A stretch of 64,000 bases of DNA from Candidatus Nomurabacteria bacterium (GCA_023898585.1 CP060229.1:726587-790586); one strand, 5' to 3'; positions 3,802 to 58,963 are shown, numbered from the stretch's first letter. Notes: generated by a model not told the origin, from the sequence alone. Numbers and translations: made by a program.

Positions 3802-5073
3802 ATGAAATCAAAGCAAGTTTTCGATGAAAATCTTTTCCAAGCGCTTTGCAAAATAAGCCCCTATATTGACGAAGCGGAATGGTTGAAAGATCATATTAGA
3901 ATTCGTCACGAGGAGAGAGAAAAATTTTTAAACAACGAAATCGAAAACCCCCACTTTACTTATAGTCCCCAAAAGTCCAAAGTTGATTATTTGAAATTGA
4001 TCGAAGAGTTCAATCAGTGTTTAAAAGACTCCGATGTGCCGGCGGTGGTAGTAGATCTGTACCAAAGGAAACTCGAAAAGCAACTACATCGAAATGCACT
4101 GATCGAAGCTTCGCTTGCTGGCGATGACCACGTTTTCTTTGAAAGGAGTTCTGATATTTACGGTCGACCACAGAAAAAGTATTTTTCTTATGTTGCTAAA
4201 CGGTTACTTACCTTGTGTAACGAACAAAAAAGTAAATACCCGGTTATTTCCCGCCGTTTGCGTAAAGTTGTGTCAAAAATCAACCAAAACGGCATTGATA
4301 TTGACGTCAGCATGTTACCGCCTTTAGTGACAAATGGTAGGCTGATTCGATCGGTGGATGAGGTTAGGAGTATATTTATAGAAACGTTGAGTCGGTGTGG
4401 TATTGAGGGTTGGATTGTCAGTGTCGATAAGGCAGGAACCAGAGGACGTTTCTCGGTTAGTCCGCAAAGTAAGACAATTCACATACCTTGTGAGTCAGAA
4501 TTGTTGTCTAGACCTCAGTCTCTTACCGATCATGGTGTCCAAGCGTTGGCTGAACACGAAGTCGGAGTTCACGTCAGACGTTCGTATGAGGCTTCAAAAG
4601 GACCTCTAAGGTTGCTCGAAATTGGTCTTGATAATTATCTTCCCGGTGAAGAGGGGTTGGCCAGTTATGCGCAACAACAGGTTGAAGGAGCCGATGAATT
4701 CTATGGGTTTGACAGGTATCTGGCGGCCAGCTTGGCGGTCGGTATGGATGGCGAGGTGAGAGATTTCCGTTCCGTTTTCAGTTTAATGTCAGATTATTAC
4801 ACTTTGAAATTCGCGCTCGAAGATAAGACAGTCTCAATTCCTTTTCAGGCAGCGTGGGATATTTGTGTGCGCATTTTCAGGGGAACTACCGGGCAAACCC
4901 CAGGTTGTATTTTTACGAAGGATATCGTGTACATGAAAGGTAATATCGGCATATGGAATTTGCTTTCCGAAAGACCAAAAGTCTTTGAGTCGCTATTTAT
5001 TGGCAAATATAACCCTTTACTTTCCCGACATGTAAAGACTTTACAAACGCTTGATATTCTGGAAGAGTGGTAG
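3802..5073 (+). CDS. DUF1704 / flavohemoglobin-expression-modulating QEGLA-motif protein (MATCAP-like HExxH metallopeptidase fold)
   Basis: HEVGVH (HExxH) motif, and a PGEEGLASYAQQ block that corresponds to the family's QEGLA signature. Its 3' end overlaps the next gene by 7 bp. Confidence 0.7.
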   Translation: MKSKQVFDENLFQALCKISPYIDEAEWLKDHIRIRHEEREKFLNNEIENPHFTYSPQKSKVDYLKLIEEFNQCLKDSDVPAVVVDLYQRKLEKQLHRNALIEASLAGDDHVFFERSSDIYGRPQKKYFSYVAKRLLTLCNEQKSKYPVISRRLRKVVSKINQNGIDIDVSMLPPLVTNGRLIRSVDEVRSIFIETLSRCGIEGWIVSVDKAGTRGRFSVSPQSKTIHIPCESELLSRPQSLTDHGVQALAEHEVGVHVRRSYEASKGPLRLLEIGLDNYLPGEEGLASYAQQQVEGADEFYGFDRYLAASLAVGMDGEVRDFRSVFSLMSDYYTLKFALEDKTVSIPFQAAWDICVRIFRGTTGQTPGCIFTKDIVYMKGNIGIWNLLSERPKVFESLFIGKYNPLLSRHVKTLQTLDILEEW

Positions 5074-6038
5074 TCATGAAAATAATATCTTCAAAATTAT
5101 TTGCACCCGCGCTGTTTTGTTGCCTTTTGTTTTTACCGTTTATATCTTTTGCTCAATCAGAAACTGAAACATTTGGCTTTAGAGATGATCTAACCGAAGT
5201 CAAAGAAAGTACCTCTACCGCAACATCGACCATAATCGAAGAGGGTACAGCATCCGCGACCGCTGCAAATATCATTGGTCAACAGGCGATTTCTTCCAAA
5301 GGCAACGACTTGACTCGTCCCGAGGAGTTACCTGAAAAGGTGGCTATCATTACGTTGTTTGAAGATCGTCCTGTTAATGAACTGAGCTTTATCAACGCTA
5401 TGGCTTTTTGGGTTCAAGAATCAGTTCGTGACGGTATTCCGGCCAACACGATTTTCCTCATCCTCTTGACACCTTTTTTGGCCTTATTCGTGAGTTTTGT
5501 TAGGGTGGTGGTCGGTTTACCAACACTTGATATGCTGGTCCCGATCGCTTTATCTTTCGCTTTGGTTGCCGTCGGTGTGACGGTTGGTCTATTGGTCTTG
5601 GGGGCGATTTTGGTTGCTTCATATATATCCAAGAAGATACTGTCCCACTTGCGTATCATGTTTTACCCTAAGCGTTCTCTTTCCATAGTGTTGCTTGCCA
5701 TTTCAGTTTTTGCCGCTTTGTCAATCGGTGTTGCTTTTGAATTTGAAAAAATTCTCAGCGTGTCGATTTTCCCAATCTTGGTTTTGTTGTTGTTGGGTGA
5801 CATGATTGTTTCCGTTCAATTACACAAAAGCCCAACAGAGACTTTGATGATTACTGGTACGACAATATTTATCGGTTTGATAGGCTACATGGTGGCGACC
5901 AGTGACGCTATCCAAAACACCATAATCCTTTACCCAGAACTAGTGTTACTTGTCATCCCGGCTAATCTCTTGATTGGTAGGTACTTTGGATTGCGCGTAT
6001 TTGAGGTGTTTAGGTTTAGTAAAGTCAGTAAAGGTTAA
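5067..6038 (+). CDS. 7-TM membrane protein (third component of the ATP-grasp/QEGLA cluster)
   Basis: Signal peptide, a ~100-aa Thr/Ser-rich ectodomain, then 7 predicted TM helices. Its position between the DUF1704 and ATP-grasp genes matches the known conserved trio. Confidence 0.55.
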   Translation: MVVMKIISSKLFAPALFCCLLFLPFISFAQSETETFGFRDDLTEVKESTSTATSTIIEEGTASATAANIIGQQAISSKGNDLTRPEELPEKVAIITLFEDRPVNELSFINAMAFWVQESVRDGIPANTIFLILLTPFLALFVSFVRVVVGLPTLDMLVPIALSFALVAVGVTVGLLVLGAILVASYISKKILSHLRIMFYPKRSLSIVLLAISVFAALSIGVAFEFEKILSVSIFPILVLLLLGDMIVSVQLHKSPTETLMITGTTIFIGLIGYMVATSDAIQNTIILYPELVLLVIPANLLIGRYFGLRVFEVFRFSKVSKG

Positions 6039-6063
6039 TTGTCCACTAAATTAAATTTTATTT

Positions 6064-7356
6064 ATGCCAGTAAGTAATTCACTGTTGGGGATGAACGCCC
6101 GAAATTTCTTATACATAAGAAAATTCAATTCCAAAAAACAAAAGATGGTGGCAGACGATAAAATGTTAACCAAGAAACGTCTTATAAATGCCGGTGTACC
6201 TACAAACTCCTTTTTGGCAAAATTCACAGATTATCAGGAAGTGCGTGAATTTGACTGGGGTTCCTTACCTTCTGATTTTGCTATCAAACCATCTCATGGG
6301 TATGGTGGGCGAGGTATTTTTGTGGTAAGGAAATGGGACGGCAAGGCCGGAGTGATAGGAAAGGGAGCAAAAGTCGATATTCTAGAACTCGAAAGAGTGA
6401 TTTTTGGCACATTGGATGGTGAACATTCGTTAAACAACTTACCTGACGCGGCCTTTATCGAAGAAAGAATCAGACCACACACTTTTTTTAAGAAGTATTC
6501 TGCCAAAGGAGTAGCGGACATACGTTTAATCGTTTGCAATATGGTGCCGGTCATGGCTATGTTGCGTCTACCGACTATTTATTCAGATGGTAAGGCCAAT
6601 TTACATCTCGGAGCTTTGGGGGTGGGAATAGACATAAGAACCGGTATCACCACTTCAGCGGTGGTGCATAATCAACCGGTCTATTACATACCAGGTACTA
6701 AAATTAAAGTCCATGGAATCAGGATTCCCGATTGGGATAAAATACTGGAGATATCCGTGCGGGCACAGCAATGTTCAAGATTGGGTTTTGCTGGAATAGA
6801 TATAGTTCTCGATGATAAACAAGGGCCATTAGTGCTTGAAGTCAACGCTCGTCCTGGTTTGGGTATTCAGGTTGCTAACCAAGCTTCTCTTCGCACAAGA
6901 CTGGAAAGAATTGGAGATTTAAATGTACAAACTGTAACCAGGGGAGTTGAATTGGCAAAAAAATTATTCGCCGATGAGACGCTTGAGGATGTCAGTGAAC
7001 AAAAATCCGCCTTGCTTGGAGTGATAGAAAAAATTGTCATCTATGGCAACGAAAACAAAAAGACAGTCCGGGCTAAAGTAGACACTGGTGCTTATCGTAC
7101 CTCGATTGACAGCGATTTAGTAGAAGAGCTTGGGCTTGATCCGCATAGTAAAACTGTTCATGTGCGGTCGGGAAGTGGCAGGCAAAAACGTCGAACCGTA
7201 AAACTCAAGTTTAAAATGAAAGGCAAGGAAATAAATACGGTTGCTACTTATACTCCGCGAGGACACCTTCGCTTTCCGGTGATTATTGGACGTAAAGACA
7301 TGGAAGGTTTTTTGGTCGACCCTGCCGATATACCGGAGGGTGTTTTGGTGAAATAA
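6064..7356 (+). CDS. RimK-like ATP-grasp alpha-L-glutamate ligase-related protein fused to a C-terminal retropepsin-like (DUF785/Zn_protease-type) aspartyl peptidase domain
   Basis: ATP-grasp blocks (GYGGRGIFVV, LEVNARPGLG). The C-terminal ~105 aa contain KVDTGAYRTSIDSDL, the DTG aspartyl-protease signature (nt 7081-7089). Confidence 0.8.
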   Translation: MPVSNSLLGMNARNFLYIRKFNSKKQKMVADDKMLTKKRLINAGVPTNSFLAKFTDYQEVREFDWGSLPSDFAIKPSHGYGGRGIFVVRKWDGKAGVIGKGAKVDILELERVIFGTLDGEHSLNNLPDAAFIEERIRPHTFFKKYSAKGVADIRLIVCNMVPVMAMLRLPTIYSDGKANLHLGALGVGIDIRTGITTSAVVHNQPVYYIPGTKIKVHGIRIPDWDKILEISVRAQQCSRLGFAGIDIVLDDKQGPLVLEVNARPGLGIQVANQASLRTRLERIGDLNVQTVTRGVELAKKLFADETLEDVSEQKSALLGVIEKIVIYGNENKKTVRAKVDTGAYRTSIDSDLVEELGLDPHSKTVHVRSGSGRQKRRTVKLKFKMKGKEINTVATYTPRGHLRFPVIIGRKDMEGFLVDPADIPEGVLVK

Positions 7357-15637: not shown

Positions 15638-16429
15638 ATGACCGTGTTCGCTCGTTTTCGTGCCTTACCCGACAAAGATAAAGCTTCTTTAATCAGGAAG
15701 CTTGTTGAAAATGGCACACCCGATTTCGATTATTTTTATCTGATCGGGCTTTCGACACTGATGGCGACATTGGGATTGCTTCTTGATAGTGGTTCGATAG
15801 TCATCGGTAGTATGTTGATTGCGCCACTTATGTACCCCGTGCTTGGAGTATCTCTTGGTCTTGTAATGATGGGCGATAACACTTCCTTACTGCAACGTGC
15901 TTTGAACACCTTGACCAAGTCACTAGCAATCGGTCTTGGCCTTTCCATAATAGCGGCACTTCTTTTTGGTAATGGCGATGAAGGTTTCTATCAAACAGCC
16001 GAGGTGATGTCACGTACAACACCCAACCACCTTCATTTATTGGTAGCCATCGTCGCCGGCGCCGCGGTTGCATACATGTTAGCTCGTCCTGAGTGGGGGG
16101 ATGCTCTCCCTGGAGTTGCGATTGCGGTCGCTTTAGTTCCTCCGCTCGCTACTGTTGGGGTAGGGATCGCGGCAGCTGATGTTGCGGTTATTTCTGGCGC
16201 AACTATGATTCTATTACTAAACTTGTTTGGTATAATAGCCGTTGCGGTTTTTGTTTTCCTCTTAATGAATTTGTCAGAGCAGGAAAATGTTGCTGAATCA
16301 ACTGTTAAGCGTGAAGATAAAAAGATTGAATCGGAAAACAAAGTCATTGCCGAAGTGGCGGAAAAAATTACGGTGAGTAAAGAGAAGAATAAAAAGATTG
16401 TTATCAGAGAAGATATAAAAACAGAATAA
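15638..16429 (+). CDS. DUF389-family membrane protein
   Basis: LIGLSTLMATLGLL...MLIAPLMYPVLG block typical of the DUF389/TIGR00341 hydrophobic domain, 6 TM. Confidence 0.55.
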   Translation: MTVFARFRALPDKDKASLIRKLVENGTPDFDYFYLIGLSTLMATLGLLLDSGSIVIGSMLIAPLMYPVLGVSLGLVMMGDNTSLLQRALNTLTKSLAIGLGLSIIAALLFGNGDEGFYQTAEVMSRTTPNHLHLLVAIVAGAAVAYMLARPEWGDALPGVAIAVALVPPLATVGVGIAAADVAVISGATMILLLNLFGIIAVAVFVFLLMNLSEQENVAESTVKREDKKIESENKVIAEVAEKITVSKEKNKKIVIREDIKTE

Positions 16430-17556
16430 TGACTTCTATTATTGCACGTAAATTCATCCCTATATCGTTATTAGCAATCGTGTTTGCTCTTAGTACTTCT
16501 TATACTGAAGCAAAAACGGTTGTCCGGTCAGGCAACACAGTTTCTATTGCTGAAGAGCAAAGTGTTGAGGGAGATTTTTACACAGCAGCAAATATTATCA
16601 ATATATCAGGTCAGGTTTCCGAGGATTTAGTTGCCGCCGGCGGACAGATAACTATAAACGGACCGGTTAACGAAGACGTGTTCCTGATTTCTGGGAGGAC
16701 GGATGTCCACGGCTCTGTTGGAGATGATTTAAGAATTATATCCGGTGAAGTGACAATCGCCGAGCCGGTAGCCGGCGATGTTTTTGTGATTGCTGGTGTT
16801 GTCAATATTCTTTCCACAGCTACTGTCTCTGGAGACGTTGTCTTATACGCCGGTCAAGCGACGATAGAAGGTTCAGTGGAAGGAAATGTTATCGGGTCCG
16901 TAGAACTGCTGAGAGTAGACGGAATGGTCGGTGGTGATGTTGATGTAAAAGTAACAGATTTTACTCTGGGCGACAGGGCGGAGATAACCGGATCTGTTCG
17001 CTATGTCAGTAACAACTTGGTGGTCCAATCATTGGACGCTAATATTTCCGGCGAATTGGTCAGAAACGACCCTGTAGCGGAAACAGTCGAGGTTGATCTT
17101 CGGGTAGCTTTAGTGCCGGCATTATCCTTGCTTTTTTCAGTTTTGGTTTGGTACTTAGTGTCTCGAAGAACATTAAATTCAATTGTTGGTCGTGCTCTTG
17201 TGAAAAGTCCACGTCCGATTTTGCTTGGTTTTGCAACTCTATTTTTTACGCCACTCGCATCCGGTATTCTTATAGCCAGTATGATTGGGGCGCCGGTTGG
17301 TTTAGTTACTTTTGTGGGTTATGTGCTTCTTCTTTTACTCAGTTTGATTGCTGTACCTTCCGTATTAGGGCACTTGTTAATGAAGGCGTTTAATCAGCCC
17401 AATGCTAAATTATCTCTCATAACCCTGGTTGTTGGAGTGGTGGGTGTTGTACTATTAATGCTACTAACATTTATCGGACAATTGATTCTCGTTGGTGTCA
17501 TGATTCTCTCTTTAGGAGCAATGGTCGATTTGCTTGTGAGGCCGTCTCTGGATTAA
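16429..17556 (+). CDS. membrane protein with bactofilin-like beta-helical repeats (polymer-forming cytoskeletal-like) and C-terminal TM bundle
   Basis: Signal/TM, then ~10 degenerate ~18-aa repeats of the form G-x-V-x-GDV-x-x-x-G-x-V-x-I. Four C-terminal TM helices. Confidence 0.45.
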   Translation: MTSIIARKFIPISLLAIVFALSTSYTEAKTVVRSGNTVSIAEEQSVEGDFYTAANIINISGQVSEDLVAAGGQITINGPVNEDVFLISGRTDVHGSVGDDLRIISGEVTIAEPVAGDVFVIAGVVNILSTATVSGDVVLYAGQATIEGSVEGNVIGSVELLRVDGMVGGDVDVKVTDFTLGDRAEITGSVRYVSNNLVVQSLDANISGELVRNDPVAETVEVDLRVALVPALSLLFSVLVWYLVSRRTLNSIVGRALVKSPRPILLGFATLFFTPLASGILIASMIGAPVGLVTFVGYVLLLLLSLIAVPSVLGHLLMKAFNQPNAKLSLITLVVGVVGVVLLMLLTFIGQLILVGVMILSLGAMVDLLVRPSLD

Positions 17557-31501: not shown

Positions 31502-32938
31502 TTATATCCTTTCGATCGACATGGTATTGGTTGTGCCGGAAATTCCGAAAGGAATACCTGCGCCAAGAATAAAAATGTCGCCATTTTTTGCCAAGTCATT
31601 CTCTAACACGATCTTCCTTGCTAATTTCTTTGCGTCGGTAAAACCTTTGATTTTTTTAATCATTACCGGTTCGCACGCAAACACAATCAGCATTTGATTG
31701 AAGGTTTTTTGGTGTCGTGTTAAAACCAAAATAGTTTTGTTAGGACGATGTCTCGATATCATTCTGGCTGTATGACCGCTTTCGCTAAGGGCTACTATTA
31801 CACGTGCGTTAGTTGGTCTCACGCTATTGGCAATCGATTGAGTTATTGCATCGCAGGAATTTAAAATCTCACTATCCCAGGCTGGTTTTTTATTGAAGAA
31901 ATAAGGGTCGTTTTCAATTTCGTATGCTACTTTAGACATCACCTCGATAGTCTTATCCGGATGTGTTCCAATAGCTGTTTCGTCTGAGAGCATCAGTGCG
32001 TCGGTGCCGTCAATGATAGCGTTCGCAATATCTGTGACTTCCGCTCTGGTTGGAGTGGCTGAAGTTTTCATGGAATCCAACATTTGAGTCGCGGTTATTA
32101 CCGGCTTGCCGTGTTTGTTGGCGAGGCGAATAATATTTTTCTGCAACAAGGGTACTTTTTCAAGTGGCATTTCTATCGCCAGGTCGCCTCTCGCAACCAT
32201 TATTGCATCCGTCTCCTTCATTATTTCTTCCAGGTTTTCGATAGCTGACTTTGTTTCGATTTTTGCGATAATCGCGACAGTACTGTTTTTCCGGAGTAAT
32301 TTACGAAGGAGGAGGATATCATCCTTTGTTCTAACAAATGACAGTGTTACAAAGTCTACGTCTTGAGCCAGGCCAAATTTTAAATCCTTTCTATCTTTGG
32401 GTGTAAGTGATGAGATAGTGAGGTTTGCATCGGGAATGTTAACCCCACGTCGACCTTTAATAGTTCCTCCCGACAAAATTGTAGTTTCTACTTGAGTGTC
32501 TGTAAGTCTTTCGACTAATAATTTTTGTTTACCATCGTTAAGGTAAATGTTCATACCGACTTCGACCTCTTGGGGAAGTTTGTCATAATTAACAAAGACT
32601 TTTTTTACAGTTCCCACGCATGGATTTGTGGTGAGAGTCAATTTCTCACCTTCTTTCAAGGTTACTTCATCAGTATCAAAATCACCAATGCGAATTTTTG
32701 GACCTGATAAATCTTGTAAGATCGCAAGTGGCAATTTAGCTTTCTTTGATGCTAGTCGAGCATTTTTGATTGTCTCACCGTGACTTTTGTGATCTCCGTG
32801 ACTCATGTTAATTCGCGCTACATTTAGCCCTTGTTGCAACATCTTTTCGATCATTTCAGCCGAACCGGAACTCGGTCCCAGAGTACCGACAATCTTTGTT
32901 TTCGTTTTTAACATCTTATTCATGGTTATATCATTCAC
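31502..32938 (-). CDS. pyk: pyruvate kinase
   Basis: KTKIVGTLGPSS N-terminus, MVARGDLAIEMP, and ~475 aa length. Confidence 0.9.
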   Translation of the reverse strand: MNDITMNKMLKTKTKIVGTLGPSSGSAEMIEKMLQQGLNVARINMSHGDHKSHGETIKNARLASKKAKLPLAILQDLSGPKIRIGDFDTDEVTLKEGEKLTLTTNPCVGTVKKVFVNYDKLPQEVEVGMNIYLNDGKQKLLVERLTDTQVETTILSGGTIKGRRGVNIPDANLTISSLTPKDRKDLKFGLAQDVDFVTLSFVRTKDDILLLRKLLRKNSTVAIIAKIETKSAIENLEEIMKETDAIMVARGDLAIEMPLEKVPLLQKNIIRLANKHGKPVITATQMLDSMKTSATPTRAEVTDIANAIIDGTDALMLSDETAIGTHPDKTIEVMSKVAYEIENDPYFFNKKPAWDSEILNSCDAITQSIANSVRPTNARVIVALSESGHTARMISRHRPNKTILVLTRHQKTFNQMLIVFACEPVMIKKIKGFTDAKKLARKIVLENDLAKNGDIFILGAGIPFGISGTTNTMSIERI

Positions 32939-33069
32939 TAATTAATTTGTTATTTTAACATTATTTTGTTGGCAGTCTTGCGCTCTGCCCCTAACAAAGG
33001 GAAAAGTCAATAATTAAACCTGACTCATGTTATCCTGATAGGGTGTGTTATTAGTTAAGGAATCAATTC

Positions 33070-34191
33070 ATGCTGAAGTTAATTAAATGGGCGGTATTTT
33101 TACTCATCATCCTTATCGTGGTTGGTAGTATTAACGATAGTAAAGATGATCCGATTTCCAATCAAGCTGAAGTGACAGTATCTGAGATAATTGTTAATGG
33201 GGAAGACGTTACCACCGGCCTGGCAGATCCCTCTATTGAGTATGGAGCTGATTCGACCGGGTGGATGGCATATTCTCATATGAATACGATTAAAAATCAT
33301 TTGTATGTTGAGACTCATTTGGCGCGGAGTGACAACAGTGGAGATACTTGGGAGTATGTCACGGATCTTAATGAGACAAAGAATGATGAGGCAAAGCAGG
33401 GTATCTGGAAAAATGAAACGTCAAGCTTGGTGTTTGATCCCGGCGACATCCCTTCTCGTCAGTGGAAAATTTTTTATGCCACCTGGTTTTTACCGTATGA
33501 AAAAGTCAATGGAAATCTGACGTTCGAGCACAGTTCAGTTAGGTATAAAACAGCTGGTTCGCCGGATGGAGTGTGGTCGGAGGAAGTGTGTTTGTTTGGT
33601 AACAAAGATGAGGGTTGTCAGCAAGAATTTTCTGAACTCGACCCTAGTCTTGAGAATATGGTCTTGATGAATGAGCTTGGGAGTATCGCTGTGAAAGGAA
33701 CCCTTTACATGAGTGCGGATGTGAGCCCGTCAAACACCGGGCTTGGAACTATTGACGAGATTAAGGCACGTAAGATAGTCCTTTTGTCATCAAAAGATCA
33801 CGGTATCACATGGAGGTTCGTAAATACACTGACTGATTTCGATGACGCGTCATCTCTCAACTATTTCGTCTTTACCGCGTCAAGTCTGGTTGAAAAAGAT
33901 GGCGTGCAGTTTCTTATGTTTACACCTTCCGGCGCCATGAACAAGAAAGACAAAAACCACGATGGTGTGTATGTTGTTGAATTTGAAGATATAAGCAAAG
34001 GTTTGTTAAAGAGGGACAAAGGAGGTAAACCACTTTTCTCTGAAATTCTGGGTGAGTTTATCGAGAATGGTGGATTGGCTGATTATCACGAGAAGAATAC
34101 CGCGGGTGGTGTAGTCGGTTCAAATTTTTACGTAGAAGGATTGTTTAAATTGAAGTCTCGATTATTTAGTACGCAAAAAGGTATAGATTAG
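33070..34191 (+). CDS. BNR/Asp-box repeat protein (sialidase-like beta-propeller), membrane anchored
   Basis: SDNSGDTW and SKDHGITW Asp-box motifs. N-terminal TM. Confidence 0.55.
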   Translation: MLKLIKWAVFLLIILIVVGSINDSKDDPISNQAEVTVSEIIVNGEDVTTGLADPSIEYGADSTGWMAYSHMNTIKNHLYVETHLARSDNSGDTWEYVTDLNETKNDEAKQGIWKNETSSLVFDPGDIPSRQWKIFYATWFLPYEKVNGNLTFEHSSVRYKTAGSPDGVWSEEVCLFGNKDEGCQQEFSELDPSLENMVLMNELGSIAVKGTLYMSADVSPSNTGLGTIDEIKARKIVLLSSKDHGITWRFVNTLTDFDDASSLNYFVFTASSLVEKDGVQFLMFTPSGAMNKKDKNHDGVYVVEFEDISKGLLKRDKGGKPLFSEILGEFIENGGLADYHEKNTAGGVVGSNFYVEGLFKLKSRLFSTQKGID

Positions 34192-34196
34192 CTCCC

Positions 34197-35324
34197 ATGA
34201 AATACGTTAAATGGTTTTTGTTAGTGTCGTTAGCATTATTTATTGTCTCGCTATTTGGAAATGAAGGTGAAAATACTGGTGTTCCTGACGATGTTAAGGA
34301 AGTGTTGGAAGACACGGAATATGTAAACAACTTACTATCCACCAAACATCCTACAGTCGCAAAAGGCAATAGGTTGTTCGGTGTTGGTATGACTGAGGGC
34401 GCTAAGGGCTTCGGCACGGCTTTTGCTAACGCACAAGAGCTTGGTGTCGAGGTGGTTGAAATAGTCTCAAATTGGGACGAGGGCGAAGTGGAAAAACAGA
34501 AGTATTCCGACACATGGCTCAGTATTGCCGATTCGTTTTATCCACCACACAATGTGTCGCTTGCGCTCTCAGTCAACCCGATAGACACAAACAACAACAA
34601 GCTTCCCGACCATCTAGATAATAAGAATTTCAACGACCCTGATGTTATCGCGAGCTACAAGCAGTACATCACGTATTTAGCCACACTGGTTCCCAACACA
34701 ACGATCGTCTCTGTTGCTGTAGGAAATGAAATTGACGCTTGGTTAGGGGACAGTAAGCAAAAATGGGGAGAATACACAGAATTCTTCTGTGCTGTCGCTC
34801 CACATGTTCGTACTTCATTTCCAAACGCTAAAGTCGGTGTCAAAATCACATTCGATTCCGTTGTTAATGACAAAAAAGGCTTTGTTAAAGAAATCAACAA
34901 ATGCGCTGATGCTGTCATGACAACATATTATCCTCTCACCAAAGAAACAATGGTGGAAATACCGACCGTTGTCCATGCTGATTTTGCAACAATTGTCCAA
35001 CTGTATCCGAACAAAGAAATATTGTTTCTGGAAGTTGGGTATCCTTCGAGCAATACGAATGGAAGTTCAGAAACAAAGCAAGCGCATTTTTATGAAGAAG
35101 TACTTGTCGCATGGGACAACAACAAGGATATGATTCCCTTATTGAATGTTGTATGGCTACATGACATTTCAAGCGAAAAAGTAAATTTTTATAAGAACTA
35201 TTATAAATGGGACGACAAGAGATTTCTGTCGTACTTGTCATCACTTGGAATACGAACGTATGATGGGGAGCCAAAAATAGCCTTCGAGGTATTAAAAAGT
35301 GGTTTGACAGAACGTGGATGGTAG
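34197..35324 (+). CDS. secreted glycoside hydrolase, clan GH-A (GH53/GH5-like TIM barrel)
   Basis: Signal peptide. VGNEIDAW (acid/base Glu) and LEVGYPSS (nucleophile Glu) blocks. Confidence 0.5.
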   Translation: MKYVKWFLLVSLALFIVSLFGNEGENTGVPDDVKEVLEDTEYVNNLLSTKHPTVAKGNRLFGVGMTEGAKGFGTAFANAQELGVEVVEIVSNWDEGEVEKQKYSDTWLSIADSFYPPHNVSLALSVNPIDTNNNKLPDHLDNKNFNDPDVIASYKQYITYLATLVPNTTIVSVAVGNEIDAWLGDSKQKWGEYTEFFCAVAPHVRTSFPNAKVGVKITFDSVVNDKKGFVKEINKCADAVMTTYYPLTKETMVEIPTVVHADFATIVQLYPNKEILFLEVGYPSSNTNGSSETKQAHFYEEVLVAWDNNKDMIPLLNVVWLHDISSEKVNFYKNYYKWDDKRFLSYLSSLGIRTYDGEPKIAFEVLKSGLTERGW

Positions 35325-35343
35325 GATAATCAAAGGATAAAAA

Positions 35344-35377
35344 AGGTCGTCCAGTCAGATCAAGACCTGGACGACCT
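35344..35377. terminator. bidirectional hairpin between convergent genes
   Basis: aggtcgtccag-12-nt loop-ctggacgacct, an 11-bp stem. Confidence 0.5.
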
Positions 35378-35405
35378 CAGTTCGGTTGGTGACTGAGATT
35401 AGGTT

Positions 35406-36002
35406 TTAGCCAAATCGCTTTTTTGCAGTTACTGCCAACCCGGCAAGCCCAAGGAAGGTCATAAGAAATGCCGTCGGCTCAGGAACCGTTTTCCAAGCCA
35501 ACACATTCTGGGTGTTTTGACCCACAAATACAACGGCTTCGATGTTGTGGTTGGGATTCCAGGGCATGGTTGATCCGCCTGGCCCCGAAACACTCAGGTT
35601 GTCTGTCAGGAAGTTGAAGTTTCCACCCCCTGTCTCCAGACCTATCTCCCATGTTGCTTTCTGTATCAGGGCGTCACTCGCAGAAGCAAACCCACCGATG
35701 ATCCCCTTAGCTTCCGCTAGCTTTCCGGACTGAGCCATAAAATCGCCGAACGGTACGACCTCCATTTCGTACGTCCCGACCCCTAAAGACTTATAGGGGT
35801 CGATACAATAGGCTATGATGTTCTTCCATCCCTCAAGCATCGTCTCAAGAGTGAACTTACCTCCGAGCGACTGGGTAACCACACCACCATCATTTATCGT
35901 GAAGTTTCCCGTCGATTGGGCATTGGTGACTTTAACCGGTACAGCCGTAGCACTGCCGATAAAGATCAGCATGACCGCGAAAAAAATAGACCTCGCTACC
36001 AT
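35406..36002 (-). CDS. secreted protein with C-terminal PEP-CTERM sorting signal
   Basis: Signal peptide (MVARSIFFAVMLIFIGSATA). C-terminus VPEPTAFLMTFLGLAGLAVTAKKRFG, i.e. PEP motif, hydrophobic helix, then basic tail. Confidence 0.65.
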   Translation of the reverse strand: MVARSIFFAVMLIFIGSATAVPVKVTNAQSTGNFTINDGGVVTQSLGGKFTLETMLEGWKNIIAYCIDPYKSLGVGTYEMEVVPFGDFMAQSGKLAEAKGIIGGFASASDALIQKATWEIGLETGGGNFNFLTDNLSVSGPGGSTMPWNPNHNIEAVVFVGQNTQNVLAWKTVPEPTAFLMTFLGLAGLAVTAKKRFG

Positions 36003-36129
36003 TTTTCTTACCTCTTCTCTGAACATGCGCGTAATGACTCTTCCTTTCTAATCAAGCACAAAAAAGAACACGAATCTATCCTTGATGCGGACTCGAATGA
36101 TAACACGGATTTCACAATTGTAAAATCAA

Positions 36130-36165
36130 AAAAGTGTCACAACGAAAAAATGCCGTGACACTTTT
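36130..36165 (-). terminator. rho-independent terminator downstream of XRE regulator
   Basis: aaaagtgtcac-14-nt loop-gtgacactttt. A U-run follows on the - strand. Confidence 0.5.
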
Positions 36166-36189
36166 TGGCGCAATGAATGATAAGTAATT

Positions 36190-36534
36190 TTACTCCATCA
36201 TTGCCCCCATAACGTCTTTAACTTTTTGTTTACCGGTCTCGGTCAGTCCGTCATACGCCTTGGCGATACTTATTGATTCCTCGCTTAAGAACGGTGCTTC
36301 ACCGAACATTAACCAACCCGGGTCAACTTGAAGAATACTAGCGATCTCATTGATCTTTCTTGGTCTGAGACTCTTACCGTTTTCGATTTTTTGTATGACA
36401 GCTTGGTTGGTTCCGGTCTCGATCCCTAGCTGCTCCTGAGTCAGACCCATCTTTAAACGCTGGCTTCTTAGACGATCGCCCATTGTAGTGGATTTTGAAT
36501 TATCTGTGTTTTCAGTATTTGCGCTTTGGTTCAC
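36190..36534 (-). CDS. XRE-family helix-turn-helix transcriptional regulator
   Basis: MGLTQEQLGIETGTNQAVIQKIENGKSLRP HTH_3 signature. Confidence 0.8.
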   Translation of the reverse strand: MNQSANTENTDNSKSTTMGDRLRSQRLKMGLTQEQLGIETGTNQAVIQKIENGKSLRPRKINEIASILQVDPGWLMFGEAPFLSEESISIAKAYDGLTETGKQKVKDVMGAMME

Positions 36535-36672
36535 CTACTAGCCTCCTAATGTGTTTTTTGATACCTGAGTGTGTACAGCTGACACATTTAATATCATAAA
36601 TAAACTTCATTTTCAACAGAGAATCTGAGGTTGTGTGTTAATGCCTTCTGTTCAGTTACGCCAATATATTAT

Positions 36673-39600
36673 TTAAATCTCGTTCATTTTTGCTCTGGTT
36701 TGTGGACCAAAACTACCATAACCCGTACTTCCCGTTGTTCCAAAACAAATAATATTGTAGTAACATTGAAACCGCCTAAGTGCTTCAGTTGTTTTCGACC
36801 CATAGAATGTTGTTTCAAAACCGTAGGAGCCAGGACCGGTGGGGGAGACATGAAAGCCCAGTGCATTGAGCTTCTTTTGTAGCATTAGAACGTCGTTGTT
36901 GTCATCACCGATTTCCAGTTTTTTTGTGAATACGTATCCAGTGGTCGCGTGCGTTCTTTCTGTTAGTTGAACTCTTAGCACAGTTATCAATTTCTTGAGT
37001 TCATCGATCTTTAACAATAACGTTTCTCTGGTCTTCTCTTTGTCCAAGTCCTTAGTTTCTTGAGTTGAGCTAGCGACATTTTCAGTCTCAGTGTTTTCTT
37101 TTTTACTGCGACTGGAACTTCCGCCCCCACCCCCACCACTTCCACCACCTCCACTGTCCGGAGCGGGAGGCACTATCACCTCAGAACGTTCGACTGAAAA
37201 CACGTGGGTTGACCAACTACCCGTATAAGTAAAGGATAGAGTGCCTCCACTATCGGTTGAGCAGGTGCTTGAATCACAGTTTGATCCTGATATCTCTGAT
37301 GAATCAGAACCGTCAATTTTTATATCGTAGTCTGTATCTGTTGCTAATCCGGATATGGTAAACACTGTCGAAGTTGCGTAACTGGAAGTAGCGGTCCAGC
37401 TTTTGATTGCGTCTTCAGAATCAGGTTCCCAGGTGTTGATCGAAATGTCCATGTATTCGGCATAATCATTGACCCCGAATCCTCCTATTGGCGAGACGGA
37501 AAGAGTGGCGGTCTCTGAACTCGAAGTCGCAGTAGTATGTCGATATTTTCCGTCTGCGTAAATTCTTATTTCACTGGTGACGTTGATGTTATCGCTACCA
37601 ATAGTAAATGGTGGTTGATACTCGTAGGCGCCGATGTCGGGGGTGCCATAAATCGGGTTCCCTAATATGTCTGAAGTGAGTGAAACGTCAATACCCGTAT
37701 CGATATTGGGAGAAAAGCTTTGGAGACTAAAATCACTATTTATCAAATCAACAAACAATGGGGAAGTGGAAGCTTGATTGTCTGTGCCCTGAAAAGTATT
37801 TATCCAATGACTATCAACCGTTCCGTTTGACCAGTTGTTGTTAGATGCAACAAAATTAGTTAAAGCACCACCTATATTGAATTCAATATTTTTGGTGTTG
37901 TCTATCAGGATGTTGTTTCGTACCGATGTGTCATTCGTTCCGTTATTTACATTGATCCCGATACCATTGTCGCGTATTACATTGTTGTATAATTGTGCAT
38001 TTTTGAGACTAGCCATGTAAACACCATTGGTTGAGCTGTTTTCGATGGTCGAGTATCTAAGAATTGAGTCTGTGTTGGTAGATGGACTTGAATTATAAAA
38101 GTAAACTCCGGTAGCGCCATTATCTGCAACCTCTAACCCTTCACCGATACACCGGTCAGCAATAAGTACCCCTATCTGGTTGGTGTATTTGACTACCAAA
38201 TCTTTAAAAGTATTACCTGACAAGCAGAACAAACCATAGTTTTCTTTACCTGCCTCAATATGTAAAGTGTTTATGTCTTCACCAGTATCTAATCTATAGT
38301 AGACTGTTACGCCTGTACTGTACCACTCACCTTCGTTCAATGAATTCTGACTGGTACTGTTCCTAACTTTTTTTTCAAGTGAATTGATGGACGGGCCGGT
38401 CGCCAAAACACCTGCACTGATGATTGATTTTTGGTAAGTGTTAGGGTTTCCTCCTCCGTACGCTGTCCAACCACCGACACTTGGATGCGATACGTCTTGA
38501 GACCCCAATATATCAGGTTTGTTTTGAGCGTCAATGCCTCGGAATGTGATGTTTGGGTCACCCAAAGCAACTGGGGTTGGGGATATATCTTCTCGGTATG
38601 GCACTCCATCGTTTTTAACAATGATCACCGTGTTGCCGGGTTGGGCTACAGATACTGCCTTGGCAATCGTGCCCCAAGGTGAAGATTCACTCCCGTCATT
38701 TAAGTCATTTCCTAGAACATTATCTACATACCAAATTTGTGATTCGGTGTAACCGGAATTTACCTGAATCGTGCGGGTTGATTGCGAGGATGATGTAGCA
38801 CCATTACCATTTACCGCCACTATATACCAGGTGTGTGATCCGTCAGAAAGAGGAGTCACAATCGTGGTTGTGGTGCCGGTTATATTGTCTGTATGAAGTG
38901 ATCCGTCTATGTACAGTTGGTATTTTGATATGCCGAAATAACTACTCGGCTCGCTCCAAGTGAAAGTGGGCAGGTCGGAGGTAACGCTGTTATTGGTTGG
39001 AGTCAAGATGTTAAAATAACTGTGAAACTCAATTTGGTTTTGGCTCAAAGGACCTAAAACGCTATAAGTATCGATACGTGAGAAGTCAGCAGTGTTATCG
39101 TTTGCGTCATCCGCTGTGAACCAGGCAAAATATTTGTCAGAAAACGCTGTAATAATTGGGGCTAAAGTACTGGTTGCTGTCAAATCAGAGTACTCCATTA
39201 TTTTTGTCCCGCCATGGGTTGTTATAACATCATTGAGTGAAAGTTCACCTGGTTGAAAGCCCGGATTGCTGTCAAACTGAAAAAGCACTTCTTTCACACG
39301 ACGAGTTTGTTTGTACGGGTAAAGGGTAAAAGTATTTTGACCAAAAGCATTGGTTGTCGTTCTGGCAACTGGAGGTTGTAACTTAATCTCGCCGTCTGTT
39401 AAGGCTGTAGAGGAAGCATAAGAAACCACGCCAAACCCATAGGTCGCACTATTATAGCCAGTGTTCCAATTTGAAGCTGTTTGTCTTAAGGAAGCTTTTA
39501 CATCAAGCCAGTTCCAGCTTGGATGATTGTACTTAATTACAGCCATCAACCCTGCGTTTCTGGCAGTGAGTTCAGAAAGTGATGTGCCACCAAAAGTTAT

Positions 39601-40113
39601 TTCCGGGCCATCCGGTATTGTCCACTCTATTCCGGGACTGCTACCCCAGCCGGCGTTTCCGGGAGCGGTGTGAAAAATAGGAGGTGGGCTGTTGGTACTC
39701 ACGGTAAAAGCATAGTTGTAAGTCATGTCGTAGCTGACATATTGGTTGTAGATGGTTACATTGTCCCCTGTATACCCTGTGTAGGAAGTAGTGTTAATAC
39801 CGTATGGGGCAGAAGAAGATACCATCGCTCCGGTATGGTCGTAGTATGTCGCGTTTGGATTTATAGCTGCTGCCGGTCCGCCCGAAAAAGTGTCTCCTGA
39901 CATGCTGGTACTATCGACAATAATGTCGGTTCCCACATGTCCGGCGCCGAGTAATTGATCTATGGTGTTGGTAATGTCGCCGTAAGCGTGTCGCGAGTTA
40001 GACAGCACTTTAACTTGAGCTTCAACTTGGTTATCTCCGTAAACCAAAAAGCCTAAAATTACAATTACGAAAGAAAACTTGACCGTCCGGTGAGGGTTCA
40101 GAAATAAAGACAT
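36673..40113 (-). CDS. large secreted cell-surface protein: parallel beta-helix (pectate-lyase-like) repeats, FN3/Ig-like domains, Gly-rich linker, coiled coil, C-terminal peptidoglycan-binding (PG_binding_1-like) domain
   Basis: ATG at 40113 gives a signal peptide MSLFLNPHRTVKFSFVIVILGFLVYG. Repeats such as NNVIRDNGIGINVNNGTNDTSVRNNILIDN, a GGGGSGGGGGGSS linker, and a C-terminal LMLQKKLNALGFHVSPTGPGSYGFETTFYGSKTTEALRRFQ block. The track's ORF starts 171 nt upstream at 40284. Confidence 0.8.
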   Translation of the reverse strand: MSLFLNPHRTVKFSFVIVILGFLVYGDNQVEAQVKVLSNSRHAYGDITNTIDQLLGAGHVGTDIIVDSTSMSGDTFSGGPAAAINPNATYYDHTGAMVSSSAPYGINTTSYTGYTGDNVTIYNQYVSYDMTYNYAFTVSTNSPPPIFHTAPGNAGWGSSPGIEWTIPDGPEITFGGTSLSELTARNAGLMAVIKYNHPSWNWLDVKASLRQTASNWNTGYNSATYGFGVVSYASSTALTDGEIKLQPPVARTTTNAFGQNTFTLYPYKQTRRVKEVLFQFDSNPGFQPGELSLNDVITTHGGTKIMEYSDLTATSTLAPIITAFSDKYFAWFTADDANDNTADFSRIDTYSVLGPLSQNQIEFHSYFNILTPTNNSVTSDLPTFTWSEPSSYFGISKYQLYIDGSLHTDNITGTTTTIVTPLSDGSHTWYIVAVNGNGATSSSQSTRTIQVNSGYTESQIWYVDNVLGNDLNDGSESSPWGTIAKAVSVAQPGNTVIIVKNDGVPYREDISPTPVALGDPNITFRGIDAQNKPDILGSQDVSHPSVGGWTAYGGGNPNTYQKSIISAGVLATGPSINSLEKKVRNSTSQNSLNEGEWYSTGVTVYYRLDTGEDINTLHIEAGKENYGLFCLSGNTFKDLVVKYTNQIGVLIADRCIGEGLEVADNGATGVYFYNSSPSTNTDSILRYSTIENSSTNGVYMASLKNAQLYNNVIRDNGIGINVNNGTNDTSVRNNILIDNTKNIEFNIGGALTNFVASNNNWSNGTVDSHWINTFQGTDNQASTSPLFVDLINSDFSLQSFSPNIDTGIDVSLTSDILGNPIYGTPDIGAYEYQPPFTIGSDNINVTSEIRIYADGKYRHTTATSSSETATLSVSPIGGFGVNDYAEYMDISINTWEPDSEDAIKSWTATSSYATSTVFTISGLATDTDYDIKIDGSDSSEISGSNCDSSTCSTDSGGTLSFTYTGSWSTHVFSVERSEVIVPPAPDSGGGGSGGGGGGSSSRSKKENTETENVASSTQETKDLDKEKTRETLLLKIDELKKLITVLRVQLTERTHATTGYVFTKKLEIGDDNNDVLMLQKKLNALGFHVSPTGPGSYGFETTFYGSKTTEALRRFQCYYNIICFGTTGSTGYGSFGPQTRAKMNEI

Positions 40114-40320
40114 GAAATCGGTTGTTACCTGTAAAATATTAGCGAAATTGTACCATATTTGAAGATGTGTAAAAAAGTAACGATGTTTATTAAACAACAT
40201 TTCTTTAATTATGAATTCGAGATGACTTTTCGAATGGTGTGTTTCTGTTGCATACCGATTTTGTAGTGTAAAAGAGCCGGTCACATCCTGTACCGGCCCT
40301 GTTTATAAAAATCTCTCAAA

Positions 40321-40995
40321 CTAGAGTCTAATTTGTTCCTCTTTGTACTTTTTTATTGTCTCTCTACGAACAGACTCGTTCAAAACAGTAAAGTGTTCTT
40401 TGAAACGAGAAATATATTCTTGCCCAGCCTTTTTACCAAGCCAGCGCATTAAAGCTTCTACAACAATCTCGTCACGTCTGGTCACATAATCAGAGTCTGG
40501 TACACATTCACCAAACCAGCCCCGACTCCTTTTACATGACTCCGAGCACTCGTGTATCAGATACCTGGTGGTGTTCGATTTAGTATTCTCGTCCATTAAC
40601 TTAAACAGGAAAACTTTTTCGGCTGGTGTTCCTTCGGGGACATGATTGTCGCTGTAAAACAGAAATGATCGACCGCAGTTCGAACCAAACCACTGTACGA
40701 AACGTGATAAGATCATAATATCTCGGGACAAATATGGACGTCCAGCGAACTCGAAATCACCCTTTGTAGTTCGGCCGATAGTCGCGATACTGGGCATAAG
40801 CTCGTGAATTATTGTTTCTGCCGGCCTCGGAAGGCTAGCCTTTAATGAATTGGCATTCGACCAAAACTCTGCTGAAACAAGGTCATGATTTATGTATCCC
40901 GGTGACGTTCCGTGCTGTAGTCTCGTGGCTCCACCGCTAAAAGTAAAGCCTACTGGAGTTAAAGAGGGATTCTCAAGCGGATGTTGCATTATCAC
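40321..40995 (-). CDS. hypothetical protein
   Basis: 224-aa ORF with no recognised family. Lies immediately 3' of tRNA-Ala. Confidence 0.4.
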   Translation of the reverse strand: MIMQHPLENPSLTPVGFTFSGGATRLQHGTSPGYINHDLVSAEFWSNANSLKASLPRPAETIIHELMPSIATIGRTTKGDFEFAGRPYLSRDIMILSRFVQWFGSNCGRSFLFYSDNHVPEGTPAEKVFLFKLMDENTKSNTTRYLIHECSESCKRSRGWFGECVPDSDYVTRRDEIVVEALMRWLGKKAGQEYISRFKEHFTVLNESVRRETIKKYKEEQIRL

Positions 40996-57918: not shown

Positions 57919-58963
57919 CCGAACACTTATTCTGCTAACTCGTCAGTCCCACTGGAGTGGTTTTTTTGATTCTAGCACACGTATGTTTTTTGAGTTCCCT
58001 AACCCATGTCTCTTTTGGTGTACGAAATCCAAGACACTTCATAAAGCGGGTACGCAGGTGCTGTTCTGCTTGCAAAATAACCTCTGGCGGTATCTGTGAA
58101 ATATCACACCCTTTTGGTACAAACTCACGTATACGGCCATTTCGGTTCTCGACCGTACCTTTCTCGGCTGAGTTGTACGGGTGTGTGAGGTACACCACCG
58201 CTTCAACCAGAGCTGATAGTTCCTCGTGCTTCTGAAAGGACAGGTCGTTATCGAGAGTAATGCTTCTGACCGGTATACCACCAAGACATCCGGCAATGAG
58301 GTCATTTACGGTGAGTGTCGTCCTGTTTTTAGTATAAATGATAAAGGGATATCGCGTCTTGCGCTCTACGAGTACCAGGAGTGATCCGTATCCAGCTTTG
58401 CCACTCTCAATGAAATCACCTTCAAAATGACCGAATTCTAGTCGTTCATTGGCTTTTCTTGATCGCTTTTCAATACTAACCTTGGTGGTGTCACCAGCTG
58501 CTTTTGTTCCTCTCTTTGGTCCGCCTTTGCGCTTTACCCGTTTGCGATACAGATGGTGTTCAAGTGGGCCGCCATGACTAGAGCCTATGAAGTGGTAGAT
58601 CGCCTTGGTACTTGCGTATTGTATGTGGGTATCTATTTCCCGCATCCTGCCTGATATACCTTCAGGTGACTGATCGTCTTCCAGTGCTTTAGTGACATAC
58701 TCTTTCAATATTGGATTCATTGCCACTTTAAGACACTTTTGTTTCGCTTGTTTCCTGCGTCGGTCTGCTTTTTTCTGTGCCCTGTCCGCCCGGTAGATTC
58801 CTCTCACACTACCGAGTCTGATCTCTTCACTTATCGTGCTTGGACTGCGATCTAATGCTCGTGCTATCCACCGCACGCCTTGTTTCTTTTTGAGATAGCG
58901 CGCAATACTTCTTCGCTCACAATACTCTAAATGATTCATCATTGTTCATCTTAGAGTGTTCGG
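57919..58963 (-). mobile_element. IS30-family insertion sequence (boundaries tentative)
   Basis: Contains an IS30-type transposase. Only a 9-bp inverted match (ccgaacact at 57919-57927, agtgttcgg at 58955-58963) lies at the expected ~1.05-kb spacing. Confidence 0.35.
57935..58942 (-). CDS. IS30-family DDE transposase
   Basis: N-terminal HTH (RRSIARYLKKKQGVRWIARALDRSPSTISEEI). DDE triad contexts GHFEGD, LDND, and YNSAEKGTVENRNGRIR. Confidence 0.85.
   Translation of the reverse strand: MMNHLEYCERRSIARYLKKKQGVRWIARALDRSPSTISEEIRLGSVRGIYRADRAQKKADRRRKQAKQKCLKVAMNPILKEYVTKALEDDQSPEGISGRMREIDTHIQYASTKAIYHFIGSSHGGPLEHHLYRKRVKRKGGPKRGTKAAGDTTKVSIEKRSRKANERLEFGHFEGDFIESGKAGYGSLLVLVERKTRYPFIIYTKNRTTLTVNDLIAGCLGGIPVRSITLDNDLSFQKHEELSALVEAVVYLTHPYNSAEKGTVENRNGRIREFVPKGCDISQIPPEVILQAEQHLRTRFMKCLGFRTPKETWVRELKKHTCARIKKTTPVGLTS

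Follow-up and report, generated by a model that had tools for sequence, protein, structure and literature searches.

Results

Features of the Locus

Our analyses of a 64-kb stretch of DNA (hereafter the window) concern a gene on its minus strand whose product combines an N-terminal signal peptide with a C-terminal PEP-CTERM domain. The open reading frame (ORF) extends over 35406..36026 and encodes 206 aa, or 198 aa and a stop codon when read from a start at 36002. The better Shine-Dalgarno sequence belongs to the start at 36002 (GAGG, 7 nt upstream) rather than to the upstream ATG at 36026, which is the start of the 206-aa form called by NCBI; the residue numbering used throughout is that of the 206-aa form. 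The predicted signal peptidase I site, which is of the AxA type, lies at ATA/VP (A28/V29), giving a mature protein that would start with VPVKV, and the AF2 model of the protein contains a helix at residues 2-20. The original prediction had described a secreted protein, a description that is supported by the presence of this Sec signal peptide and by its alignment with the signal peptides of related proteins. The C-terminus reads WKTVPEPTAFLMTFLGLAGLAVTAKKRFG, as quoted in that prediction. The coordinates of these and other features are summarized in Table 1.

Table 1. Coordinates of the PEP-CTERM protein gene, its coding features and its local signals in the window (TED, thioester domain).
Feature	Position	Strand	Remarks
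CDS, PEP-CTERM protein	35406..36002	-	198 aa + stop; alternative ATG 36026
Sec signal peptide MVARSIFFAVMLIFIGSATA	35943..36002	-	Read from sequence; aligned with the AHA/D signal-peptide ends of relatives
Cys74 codon, motif AYCID	35805..35807	-	Invariant in 40 relatives; fits TED motif [YFL]C-hydrophobic-hydrophilic
Gln122...Trp126 (IQKATW)	35649..35663	-	Q122 and W126 invariant; fits TED motif TQXX-hydrophobic-W
Gln173 codon, in TQNVL	35508..35510	-	Invariant; fits weak TED motif hydrophobic-Q-hydrophilic-hydrophobic-hydrophobic (bond-forming Gln)
PEP-CTERM domain	35409..35486	-	VPEP, TM helix and basic tail
PEP codons	35475..35483	-	Within VPEP
TM helix TAFLMTFLGLAGLAVTA	35424..35474	-	17 residues
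Basic tail KKRFG	35409..35423	-	End of PEP-CTERM domain
Sigma-70-like promoter	36097..36124	-	TTTACA, 16 nt, TG-TATCAT
Palindrome GATTTCACAATTGTAAAATC, 20 nt	36108..36127	.	Overlaps -35 hexamer of the gene's promoter
Intrinsic terminator	35338..35378	-	11-bp G+C-rich stem (35344-35354 / 35367-35377), then U run; z -3.9

The PEP-CTERM gene stands alone as a unit, with a local promoter of the sigma-70 type at its head and a terminator of its own. No match to the sigma-54 -24/-12 box was found in 36027..36190, and the matches to this box across the window are at chance level. Just upstream of the palindrome lies an XRE-family HTH gene (36190..36534, minus strand), which also has its own terminator. 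On the basis of their arrangement, the palindrome and the XRE-type regulator may constitute an operator-regulator pair that controls the acquired gene.

Two exported or membrane-tethered enzymes, encoded at 33070..35324, converge on the PEP-CTERM gene. The first (373 aa) is BNR/sialidase-like, by a weak match, and the second is a 375-aa GH53-like glycosidase, listed by NCBI as a 'glycosyl hydrolase 53 family protein'; both genes are of normal GC content, and no relatives of either protein were recovered when JGI metagenomes were scanned.

Host Lineage and Gene Content of the Window

The proteins encoded beside the PEP-CTERM gene correspond to NCBI entries of Candidatus Kaiserbacteria and Candidatus Nomurabacteria, and the contig that carries them is 994,774 bp in length, i.e. 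a genome of about 1 Mb. The public taxonomy is inconsistent, the same proteins being entered under Candidatus Kaiserbacteria (MCA93557xx, GCA_020428745.1) and under Candidatus Nomurabacteria (USN920xx, the 994,774-bp contig). The entry of the PEP-CTERM protein itself should lie between USN92014.1 and USN92016.1 of the latter record. The host is thus a member of the Candidate Phyla Radiation (CPR), whose bacteria are without an outer membrane. Pfam analysis of the 58 window ORFs of at least 100 aa revealed a typical CPR mix, which includes genes for the cell wall and cell division (viz. MraZ/MraW, FtsI, Mur ligases, MraY, FtsW, MurG, D-Ala-D-Ala carboxypeptidase, and an M23 peptidase), ScpA/B, several aminoacyl-tRNA synthetases, IF-2, and pyruvate kinase. 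Glycoside hydrolases are also encoded, as is a 1203-aa protein in which a beta-helix is combined with a peptidoglycan-binding domain. Genes for an outer membrane, LPS, or an EPS locus were not found among these 58 ORFs. The original prediction had raised the case of a reduced-genome or monoderm-like host, and this is the case that applies here, in view of the Kaiserbacteria and Nomurabacteria names, the length of the contig, and the lack of outer-membrane genes in the window.

Elsewhere in the window, the products of a three-gene set at 3802..7356 are a carboxypeptidase resembling MATCAP/DUF1704, an 'inactive transglutaminase'-type 7TM protein (with a weak RloB match), and a protein in which an ATP-grasp of the sugar-transfer type is fused to an aspartyl protease; the set resembles a peptide-ligase or tagging cassette, which is unusual for a 1-Mb genome. 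The 335-aa product of the gene at 57935..58942 shows a single match, at its N-terminus, to the HTH_38 domain, which is often present in transposases of the IS30 type; the gene, whose GC content is slightly raised (0.463), may belong to a mobile element.

Composition and Conservation of the Locus

The PEP-CTERM gene is the compositional extreme of the window, its GC content being 0.508 as against 0.426 +/- 0.018 for the other window ORFs (z +4.5, the highest). It also ranks first in GC3 (z +4.7) and, of 56 ORFs, last in its fit to synonymous-codon use. The second-worst codon fit of the window is that of the gene at 16429..17556, which encodes a 375-aa protein with about seven predicted TM segments, a sub-threshold bactofilin-like stretch as its only similarity, and no NCBIfam match. 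The intergenic flanks of the PEP-CTERM gene have GC contents of 0.44 (including the G+C-rich terminator stem) and 0.37, in comparison to the 0.508 of the CDS.

The departure of GC content and codon use from those of all neighbours could be taken to indicate a contaminant, i.e. a proteobacterial gene joined to a CPR contig by mis-assembly. However, an identical protein with the same neighbours is present in seven independent assemblies (NCBI, ENA, and Logan), which were obtained from different samples, for example SRR26387399 and ERZ27309291, and are 99.2-100% identical to the window at the DNA level. The gene can hence not be ascribed to faulty assembly. The high GC content is, moreover, limited to the CDS, and the flanks are AT-rich and contain the local promoter and terminator. 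In view of the seven concordant assemblies we have rejected a chimeric join, which we regard as extremely improbable.

Each of four assemblies (L002-L005) differs from the window at 22-23 positions, none of which is located within 32796-36672. All of these differences fall in 36673..40995, within the gene for the 1203-aa beta-helix/PG-binding surface protein and the next gene. Many of them are grouped in tight clusters (at 37353-37426, 37459-37531, and 39208-39228) with spacings that are multiples of 3 nt, a pattern suggestive of tracts of recombination or of diversifying variation in the large surface protein.

Relatives of the Protein and Its Probable Horizontal Origin

Relatives of the protein were sought by a phmmer search of 1.84 billion representatives, followed by a profile search. 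The phmmer search identified a nearest relative (P0002) of 210 aa with 43% identity and four more proteins of 202-231 aa, each with a signal peptide and a PEP-CTERM or VPLPA-CTERM tail, and the profile search recovered 54 proteins, most of them with PF07589. All 23 of the relative loci in species-representative genomes belong to Pseudomonadota. They are mostly from Burkholderiales (viz. Roseateles, Pelomonas, Paucibacter, Rhizobacter, and Comamonadaceae), whose members are 20-28% identical to the CPR protein, and the remainder are from Methylophilaceae and a few Gamma- and Alphaproteobacteria. P0002 is located on a 1.3-kb contig of about 49% GC, and a search with this protein returned P0002 alone. 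Two much larger proteins, P0007 (1077 aa) and P0008 (1812 aa), match the CPR protein in 10 and 8 separate stretches, respectively, the best being at its residues 68-81, which contain the Cys motif, for P0007 and at residues 104-170 for P0008; each may consist of several domains, with parts of the same module present in repeated copies.

The relatives adjoin genes for TonB-dependent receptors, Tol-Pal proteins, pairs of a histidine kinase and a response regulator, a sugar transferase, and further PEP-CTERM proteins. In two high-GC loci (L008, 10001-15174, and L034, 3878-9732) the family gene is followed by a histidine kinase of approximately 620-650 aa, a GerE response regulator, and Bac_transf, with a second PEP-CTERM gene, which in L034 separates the family gene from the kinase and in L008 is located further downstream. 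The kinase, response regulator, and sugar transferase set is thus a conserved neighbourhood of the family in these two relatives, and an EPS-type neighbourhood of this kind is also the setting reported by Haft 2006 (PMC1569441) and in the study of pepA from Aquincola (PMC9850573).

No orthologue was detected in other CPR genomes (among the 1.84 billion representatives, the species-representative genomes, and the metagenome scan), the metagenome scan with an alignment of P0001 and P0002 gave no match, and no homologues were found in plasmid and phage collections. There are no flanking repeats of note at the gene. Since the relatives all belong to Pseudomonadota and the gene is a compositional outlier, these sequence comparisons are best explained by its horizontal transfer from a diderm lineage.

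Identity of the PEP-CTERM Domain

The original prediction had recognized a tripartite PEP-CTERM tail and had proposed TIGR02595 as a check. This model (PEP_CTERM) matches the protein with 17.2 bits (E 0.0067), which is borderline but above the curated cut-off of 16, and the Pfam model PF07589 gives 18.1 bits, under its gathering score of 20.7. Of the models for particular PEP-CTERM proteins, NF038129 scores 25.5 bits over residues 146-196 (cut-off 65, not reached), the PepA model NF033554 scores 17.8 bits (cut-off 80, not reached), and further ones give weak, sub-threshold matches.

These borderline scores would be compatible with a chance resemblance, i.e. an ordinary membrane anchor at the C-terminus with PEP at its start by coincidence. 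Against this, the protein shows full-length homology to at least 39 proteins with clear PEP-CTERM or VPLPA-CTERM tails. An HMM constructed from 39 relatives, with the protein itself left out, matches it with 76.1 bits (E 1.6e-25, for one target), the alignment extending from residue 7 to residue 204 and thus starting in the signal peptide, including the PEP motif, and ending in the basic tail. The columns that do not vary among the 40 aligned sequences are C74, Q122, A124, W126, Q173, P182, and P184, the last two of which argue further against a coincidence. On the strength of the full-length homology and of the leave-one-out match we have rejected a chance resemblance, to which we attach next to no credence.

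The tripartite tail that had been predicted is thus upheld by the sequence itself, by the alignment of the relatives, and by the leave-one-out HMM. Despite the borderline TIGR02595 and PF07589 scores, the tail is, as judged by its homologous alignment to clear PEP-CTERM tails, a genuine PEP-CTERM domain by descent. Being inherited from a Pseudomonadota family of PEP-CTERM proteins, it is genuine even if it is orphaned in its present host, and for the same reason the earlier supposition that, without an exosortase, the tail would be a product of chance does not hold. The protein already bears the name 'PEP-CTERM sorting domain-containing protein' [Candidatus Kaiserbacteria bacterium] in public databases. 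Among PEP-CTERM proteins it is unremarkable for its family; it is the genome around it that is extraordinary. A six-frame scan of the 64 kb revealed no second PEP-CTERM-like tail; the median number of PEP-CTERM paralogues per genome is eight (Haft 2006, PMC1569441).

Search for the Sorting Machinery

The original prediction had stated that no exosortase is encoded in the window, which agrees with our results: none of the 58 window ORFs of at least 100 aa matched an exosortase or archaeosortase family, including Exosortase_EpsH, in Pfam, and none of ten ORFs (six encoding membrane proteins and four unassigned) matched one in NCBIfam. Three membrane-protein ORFs that were considered as exosortase candidates have been rejected, viz. 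a 320-aa ORF with 8 TM segments, which is an EamA transporter, a 375-aa ORF with 7 TM segments, which has no family match, and a 323-aa ORF, which is a 7TM transglutaminase-associated protein. Neither EPS nor Prs genes were found in the 64-kb window. The flanks, as represented in other assemblies (approximately 5.5 kb on the left and 8 kb on the right, about 13 kb in all), contain only housekeeping genes and no exosortase according to their stored Pfam labels. The sequence inspected, 64 kb and about 13 kb, comprises approximately 8% of the 995-kb genome. In the literature we found no paper that joins exosortase with Patescibacteria, and the sole paper with both PEP-CTERM and CPR terms has PEP-CTERM in its reference list only.

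An exosortase or archaeosortase-like enzyme may be encoded elsewhere in the CPR genome, in which case the protein would be a true substrate that is cut at PEP and passed to a surface acceptor, and a working PEP-CTERM system would exist in a bacterium without an outer membrane. This reading draws on the intactness of the PEP motif, TM helix, and basic tail, on the score above the TIGR02595 cut-off, on the intact and separately promoted and terminated gene, and on the small fraction of the genome that was seen. It is opposed by the results of the above searches, in which neither an exosortase, nor a second PEP-CTERM protein, nor EPS or Prs genes came to light in the 64 kb and no exosortase label in the flanks, by the lack of any paper found to link exosortase with Patescibacteria, by the foreign composition of the gene, and by the closest relative, P0002, in which the PEP motif has been lost (VPITP) while the helix and the arginines have been kept. 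The VPITP sequence is in keeping with a cleavage motif that has come under weaker constraint in this branch of the family. We consider an exosortase elsewhere in the genome to be quite improbable, and a host genome without an exosortase is the most likely state. The presence of a sorting system, as assumed in the original prediction, is not borne out: only a substrate-like protein has been seen, and nothing points to the system itself.

Resemblance of the Core to Thioester Domains

Three motifs have been described for thioester domains (TEDs), which are known as domains of Gram-positive adhesins: [YFL]C-hydrophobic-hydrophilic, with the bonding Cys; TQXX-hydrophobic-W, in a helix beside the bond; and a weak third motif near the C-terminus, hydrophobic-Q-hydrophilic-hydrophobic-hydrophobic, with the bonding Gln (PMC6194298). 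At its invariant residues the family studied here has the motifs (Y/F)C(V/I)D, FQxAVW, and HQD(V/I)(V/I), which correspond to AYCID, IQKATW, and TQNVL in the CPR protein. The residues C74, Q122, W126, and Q173 fall on the three TED motifs, a correspondence that, for motifs as short as these, is suggestive only. The essential Cys68 of TIE-pLS20, the adhesin of pLS20 conjugation, stands in the context YCID(P), with the same YCID as in the CPR protein. A thioester pair formed by Cys74 and Gln122 has been considered and dropped, since Gln122 fits the non-bonding TQXX-hydrophobic-W motif and Gln173 is the candidate bonding residue.

At the level of the family, the Pfam TED model (PF08341) weakly matches 11 of the 40 members (best E 0.0018) and is the second most frequent family match. 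The AF2 model of one relative, the MAG-derived P0039 (locus L008), is confident (pLDDT 89.5, pTM 0.82) and consists of a beta-barrel and helices. In a Foldseek comparison of this model with the PDB, TEDs were the only structures above noise, the best match being the N-terminal domain of Cpa (4c0z, seven chains; probability 0.98-0.99, E 6e-3 to 1.6e-2, TM 0.40-0.51), followed by 6fwy, the TED of TIE86 from E. faecium.

The CPR protein itself does not match the Pfam TED model up to E 10, and its AF2 model is poor (pLDDT 69, with residues 102-120 below 50) and has no structural match in the PDB. The absence from the CPR protein of the third-helix segment seen in its relatives also speaks against a TED. 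Profile searches of PDB sequences recovered no TED, and an hhalign comparison with nine plasmid class II TEDs of the pLS20 type was not significant (P about 0.07), with the Cys motifs aligned. No paper was found in which 'thioester domain' is paired with PEP-CTERM. A domain of about 150 aa that is anchored eight residues away from the membrane may, moreover, not extend past the cell wall, which counts against a TED adhesin. In our assessment a kinship in fold between the family and TEDs is reasonably likely, and an actual thioester in the CPR protein is a more tentative proposition that falls somewhat short of an even chance. The core of the CPR protein probably has a reduced thioester-domain-like fold, a reading that we regard as a lead.

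Discussion

Proposed Fate of the Protein in Its Host

We favour, with moderate confidence, the interpretation that the protein is a borrowed PEP-CTERM protein of a Pseudomonadota family, whose tail is orphaned and whose core is probably a reduced TED-like domain. The gene would have been acquired horizontally by a CPR bacterium of the Kaiserbacteria or Nomurabacteria and would now be located there as a single-gene unit. If, as we infer, the host has no exosortase, the protein would be exported by the Sec pathway, its signal peptide would be cut at ATA/VP, and it would be retained in the membrane. The tail would then probably act as a membrane anchor only, its helix and KKR cluster serving as a stop-transfer signal with no cleavage at PEP, and the product would be a type I membrane protein in which a core of approximately 150 aa is tethered at the outer face of the cytoplasmic membrane. 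Within this core, Cys74 and Gln173 would be the candidate thioester pair and Gln122 and Trp126 part of the supporting helix motif; if this assignment is right, the core would be a covalent binding module.

The protein could otherwise be a functionless remnant of the transfer, not yet decayed and either unexpressed or expressed without a role. The gene is a singleton, with no CPR orthologue among 1.84 billion representatives, its product lacks the third-helix segment that is carried by the relatives, and the cognate machinery is probably absent, all of which would be expected of a remnant. In contrast, the ORF is intact and is provided with a Shine-Dalgarno sequence, a promoter, and a terminator, all of the residues that are invariant in the family are retained, and the gene is identical in strains that differ elsewhere, although these differences are too few for a test of selection. 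A functionless remnant is therefore, in our view, unlikely, though less so than an exosortase elsewhere in the genome, and a membrane-anchored protein with an orphaned tail is the reading that we prefer.

Significance of the Finding

PEP-CTERM proteins have hitherto been associated with bacteria that have an outer membrane together with an EPS locus and an exosortase. The occurrence of a genuine PEP-CTERM protein that is fixed in several strains of a CPR bacterium with a 1-Mb genome raises the question of the fate of a sorting signal that has been moved to a host probably without its machinery. It also provides an example of a CPR bacterium acquiring a gene for a surface protein from the kind of bacteria on which it may live. 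What sets this finding apart from the known PEP-CTERM proteins is the possible TED nature of the family. If the TED-like signature is confirmed, covalent thioester adhesins would extend beyond the Gram-positive bacteria, and this would point to a way in which exopolysaccharide is fastened to the cells of flocs and biofilms by small PEP-CTERM proteins.

A bolder proposal, which we hold to be speculative and rather unlikely as a whole, is that the family represents an undescribed class of stand-alone miniature TED proteins of about 150-170 aa, which are anchored by PEP-CTERM domains, are encoded within Burkholderiales EPS loci, and form covalent links to polysaccharide or to adjacent cells, and that one of them has been captured by a CPR episymbiont, where it is displayed without an exosortase for attachment to hosts or the floc matrix. 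Such a class, if real, would provide a chemical basis for PEP-CTERM-dependent flocculation.

Comparison with Known Systems

The CPR protein shares with the substrates of the PEP-CTERM/exosortase system (EpsH, XrtA) a signal peptide, the VPEP motif, a TM helix of 17 residues, and a basic cluster, as well as transcription as a single-gene unit and little similarity to characterised proteins. It differs from them in that its basic cluster is KKR and not RRR(R), and in that its host is a CPR bacterium with a genome of about 1 Mb and no outer membrane, in which one copy has been seen. In contrast to the known systems, the gene has no exosortase, EPS locus, or PrsK/PrsR/PrsT genes nearby, and no sigma-54 box.

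The family resembles small PEP-CTERM proteins of Burkholderiales and relatives, viz. NF038129 proteins and the flocculation protein PepA of Aquincola (NF033554; PMC9850573), in size (approximately 200-260 aa) and layout. These models weakly match 38-40 of the 40 family members, the CPR protein over its C-terminal half, and several of the relatives head an EPS locus with histidine kinase, response regulator, and sugar transferase genes. However, the scores of the CPR protein are far under the curated cut-offs, and the N-terminal sequence of PepA (PMC9850573) is unlike that of the family.

With the TED (PF08341) of TIE adhesins, viz. Cpa, SfbI, BaTIE, and TIE-pLS20, the family shares the correspondence to three motifs at its invariant residues and a predicted architecture of a beta-barrel and a helical bundle. 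Its core is smaller, at about 150-170 aa compared with more than 200 aa for TEDs, stands alone without isopeptide or ester stalk domains, and is anchored by a PEP-CTERM domain and not by LPXTG. The TED adhesins are, furthermore, Gram-positive proteins, whereas the present family is found in diderm Pseudomonadota and in one CPR bacterium.
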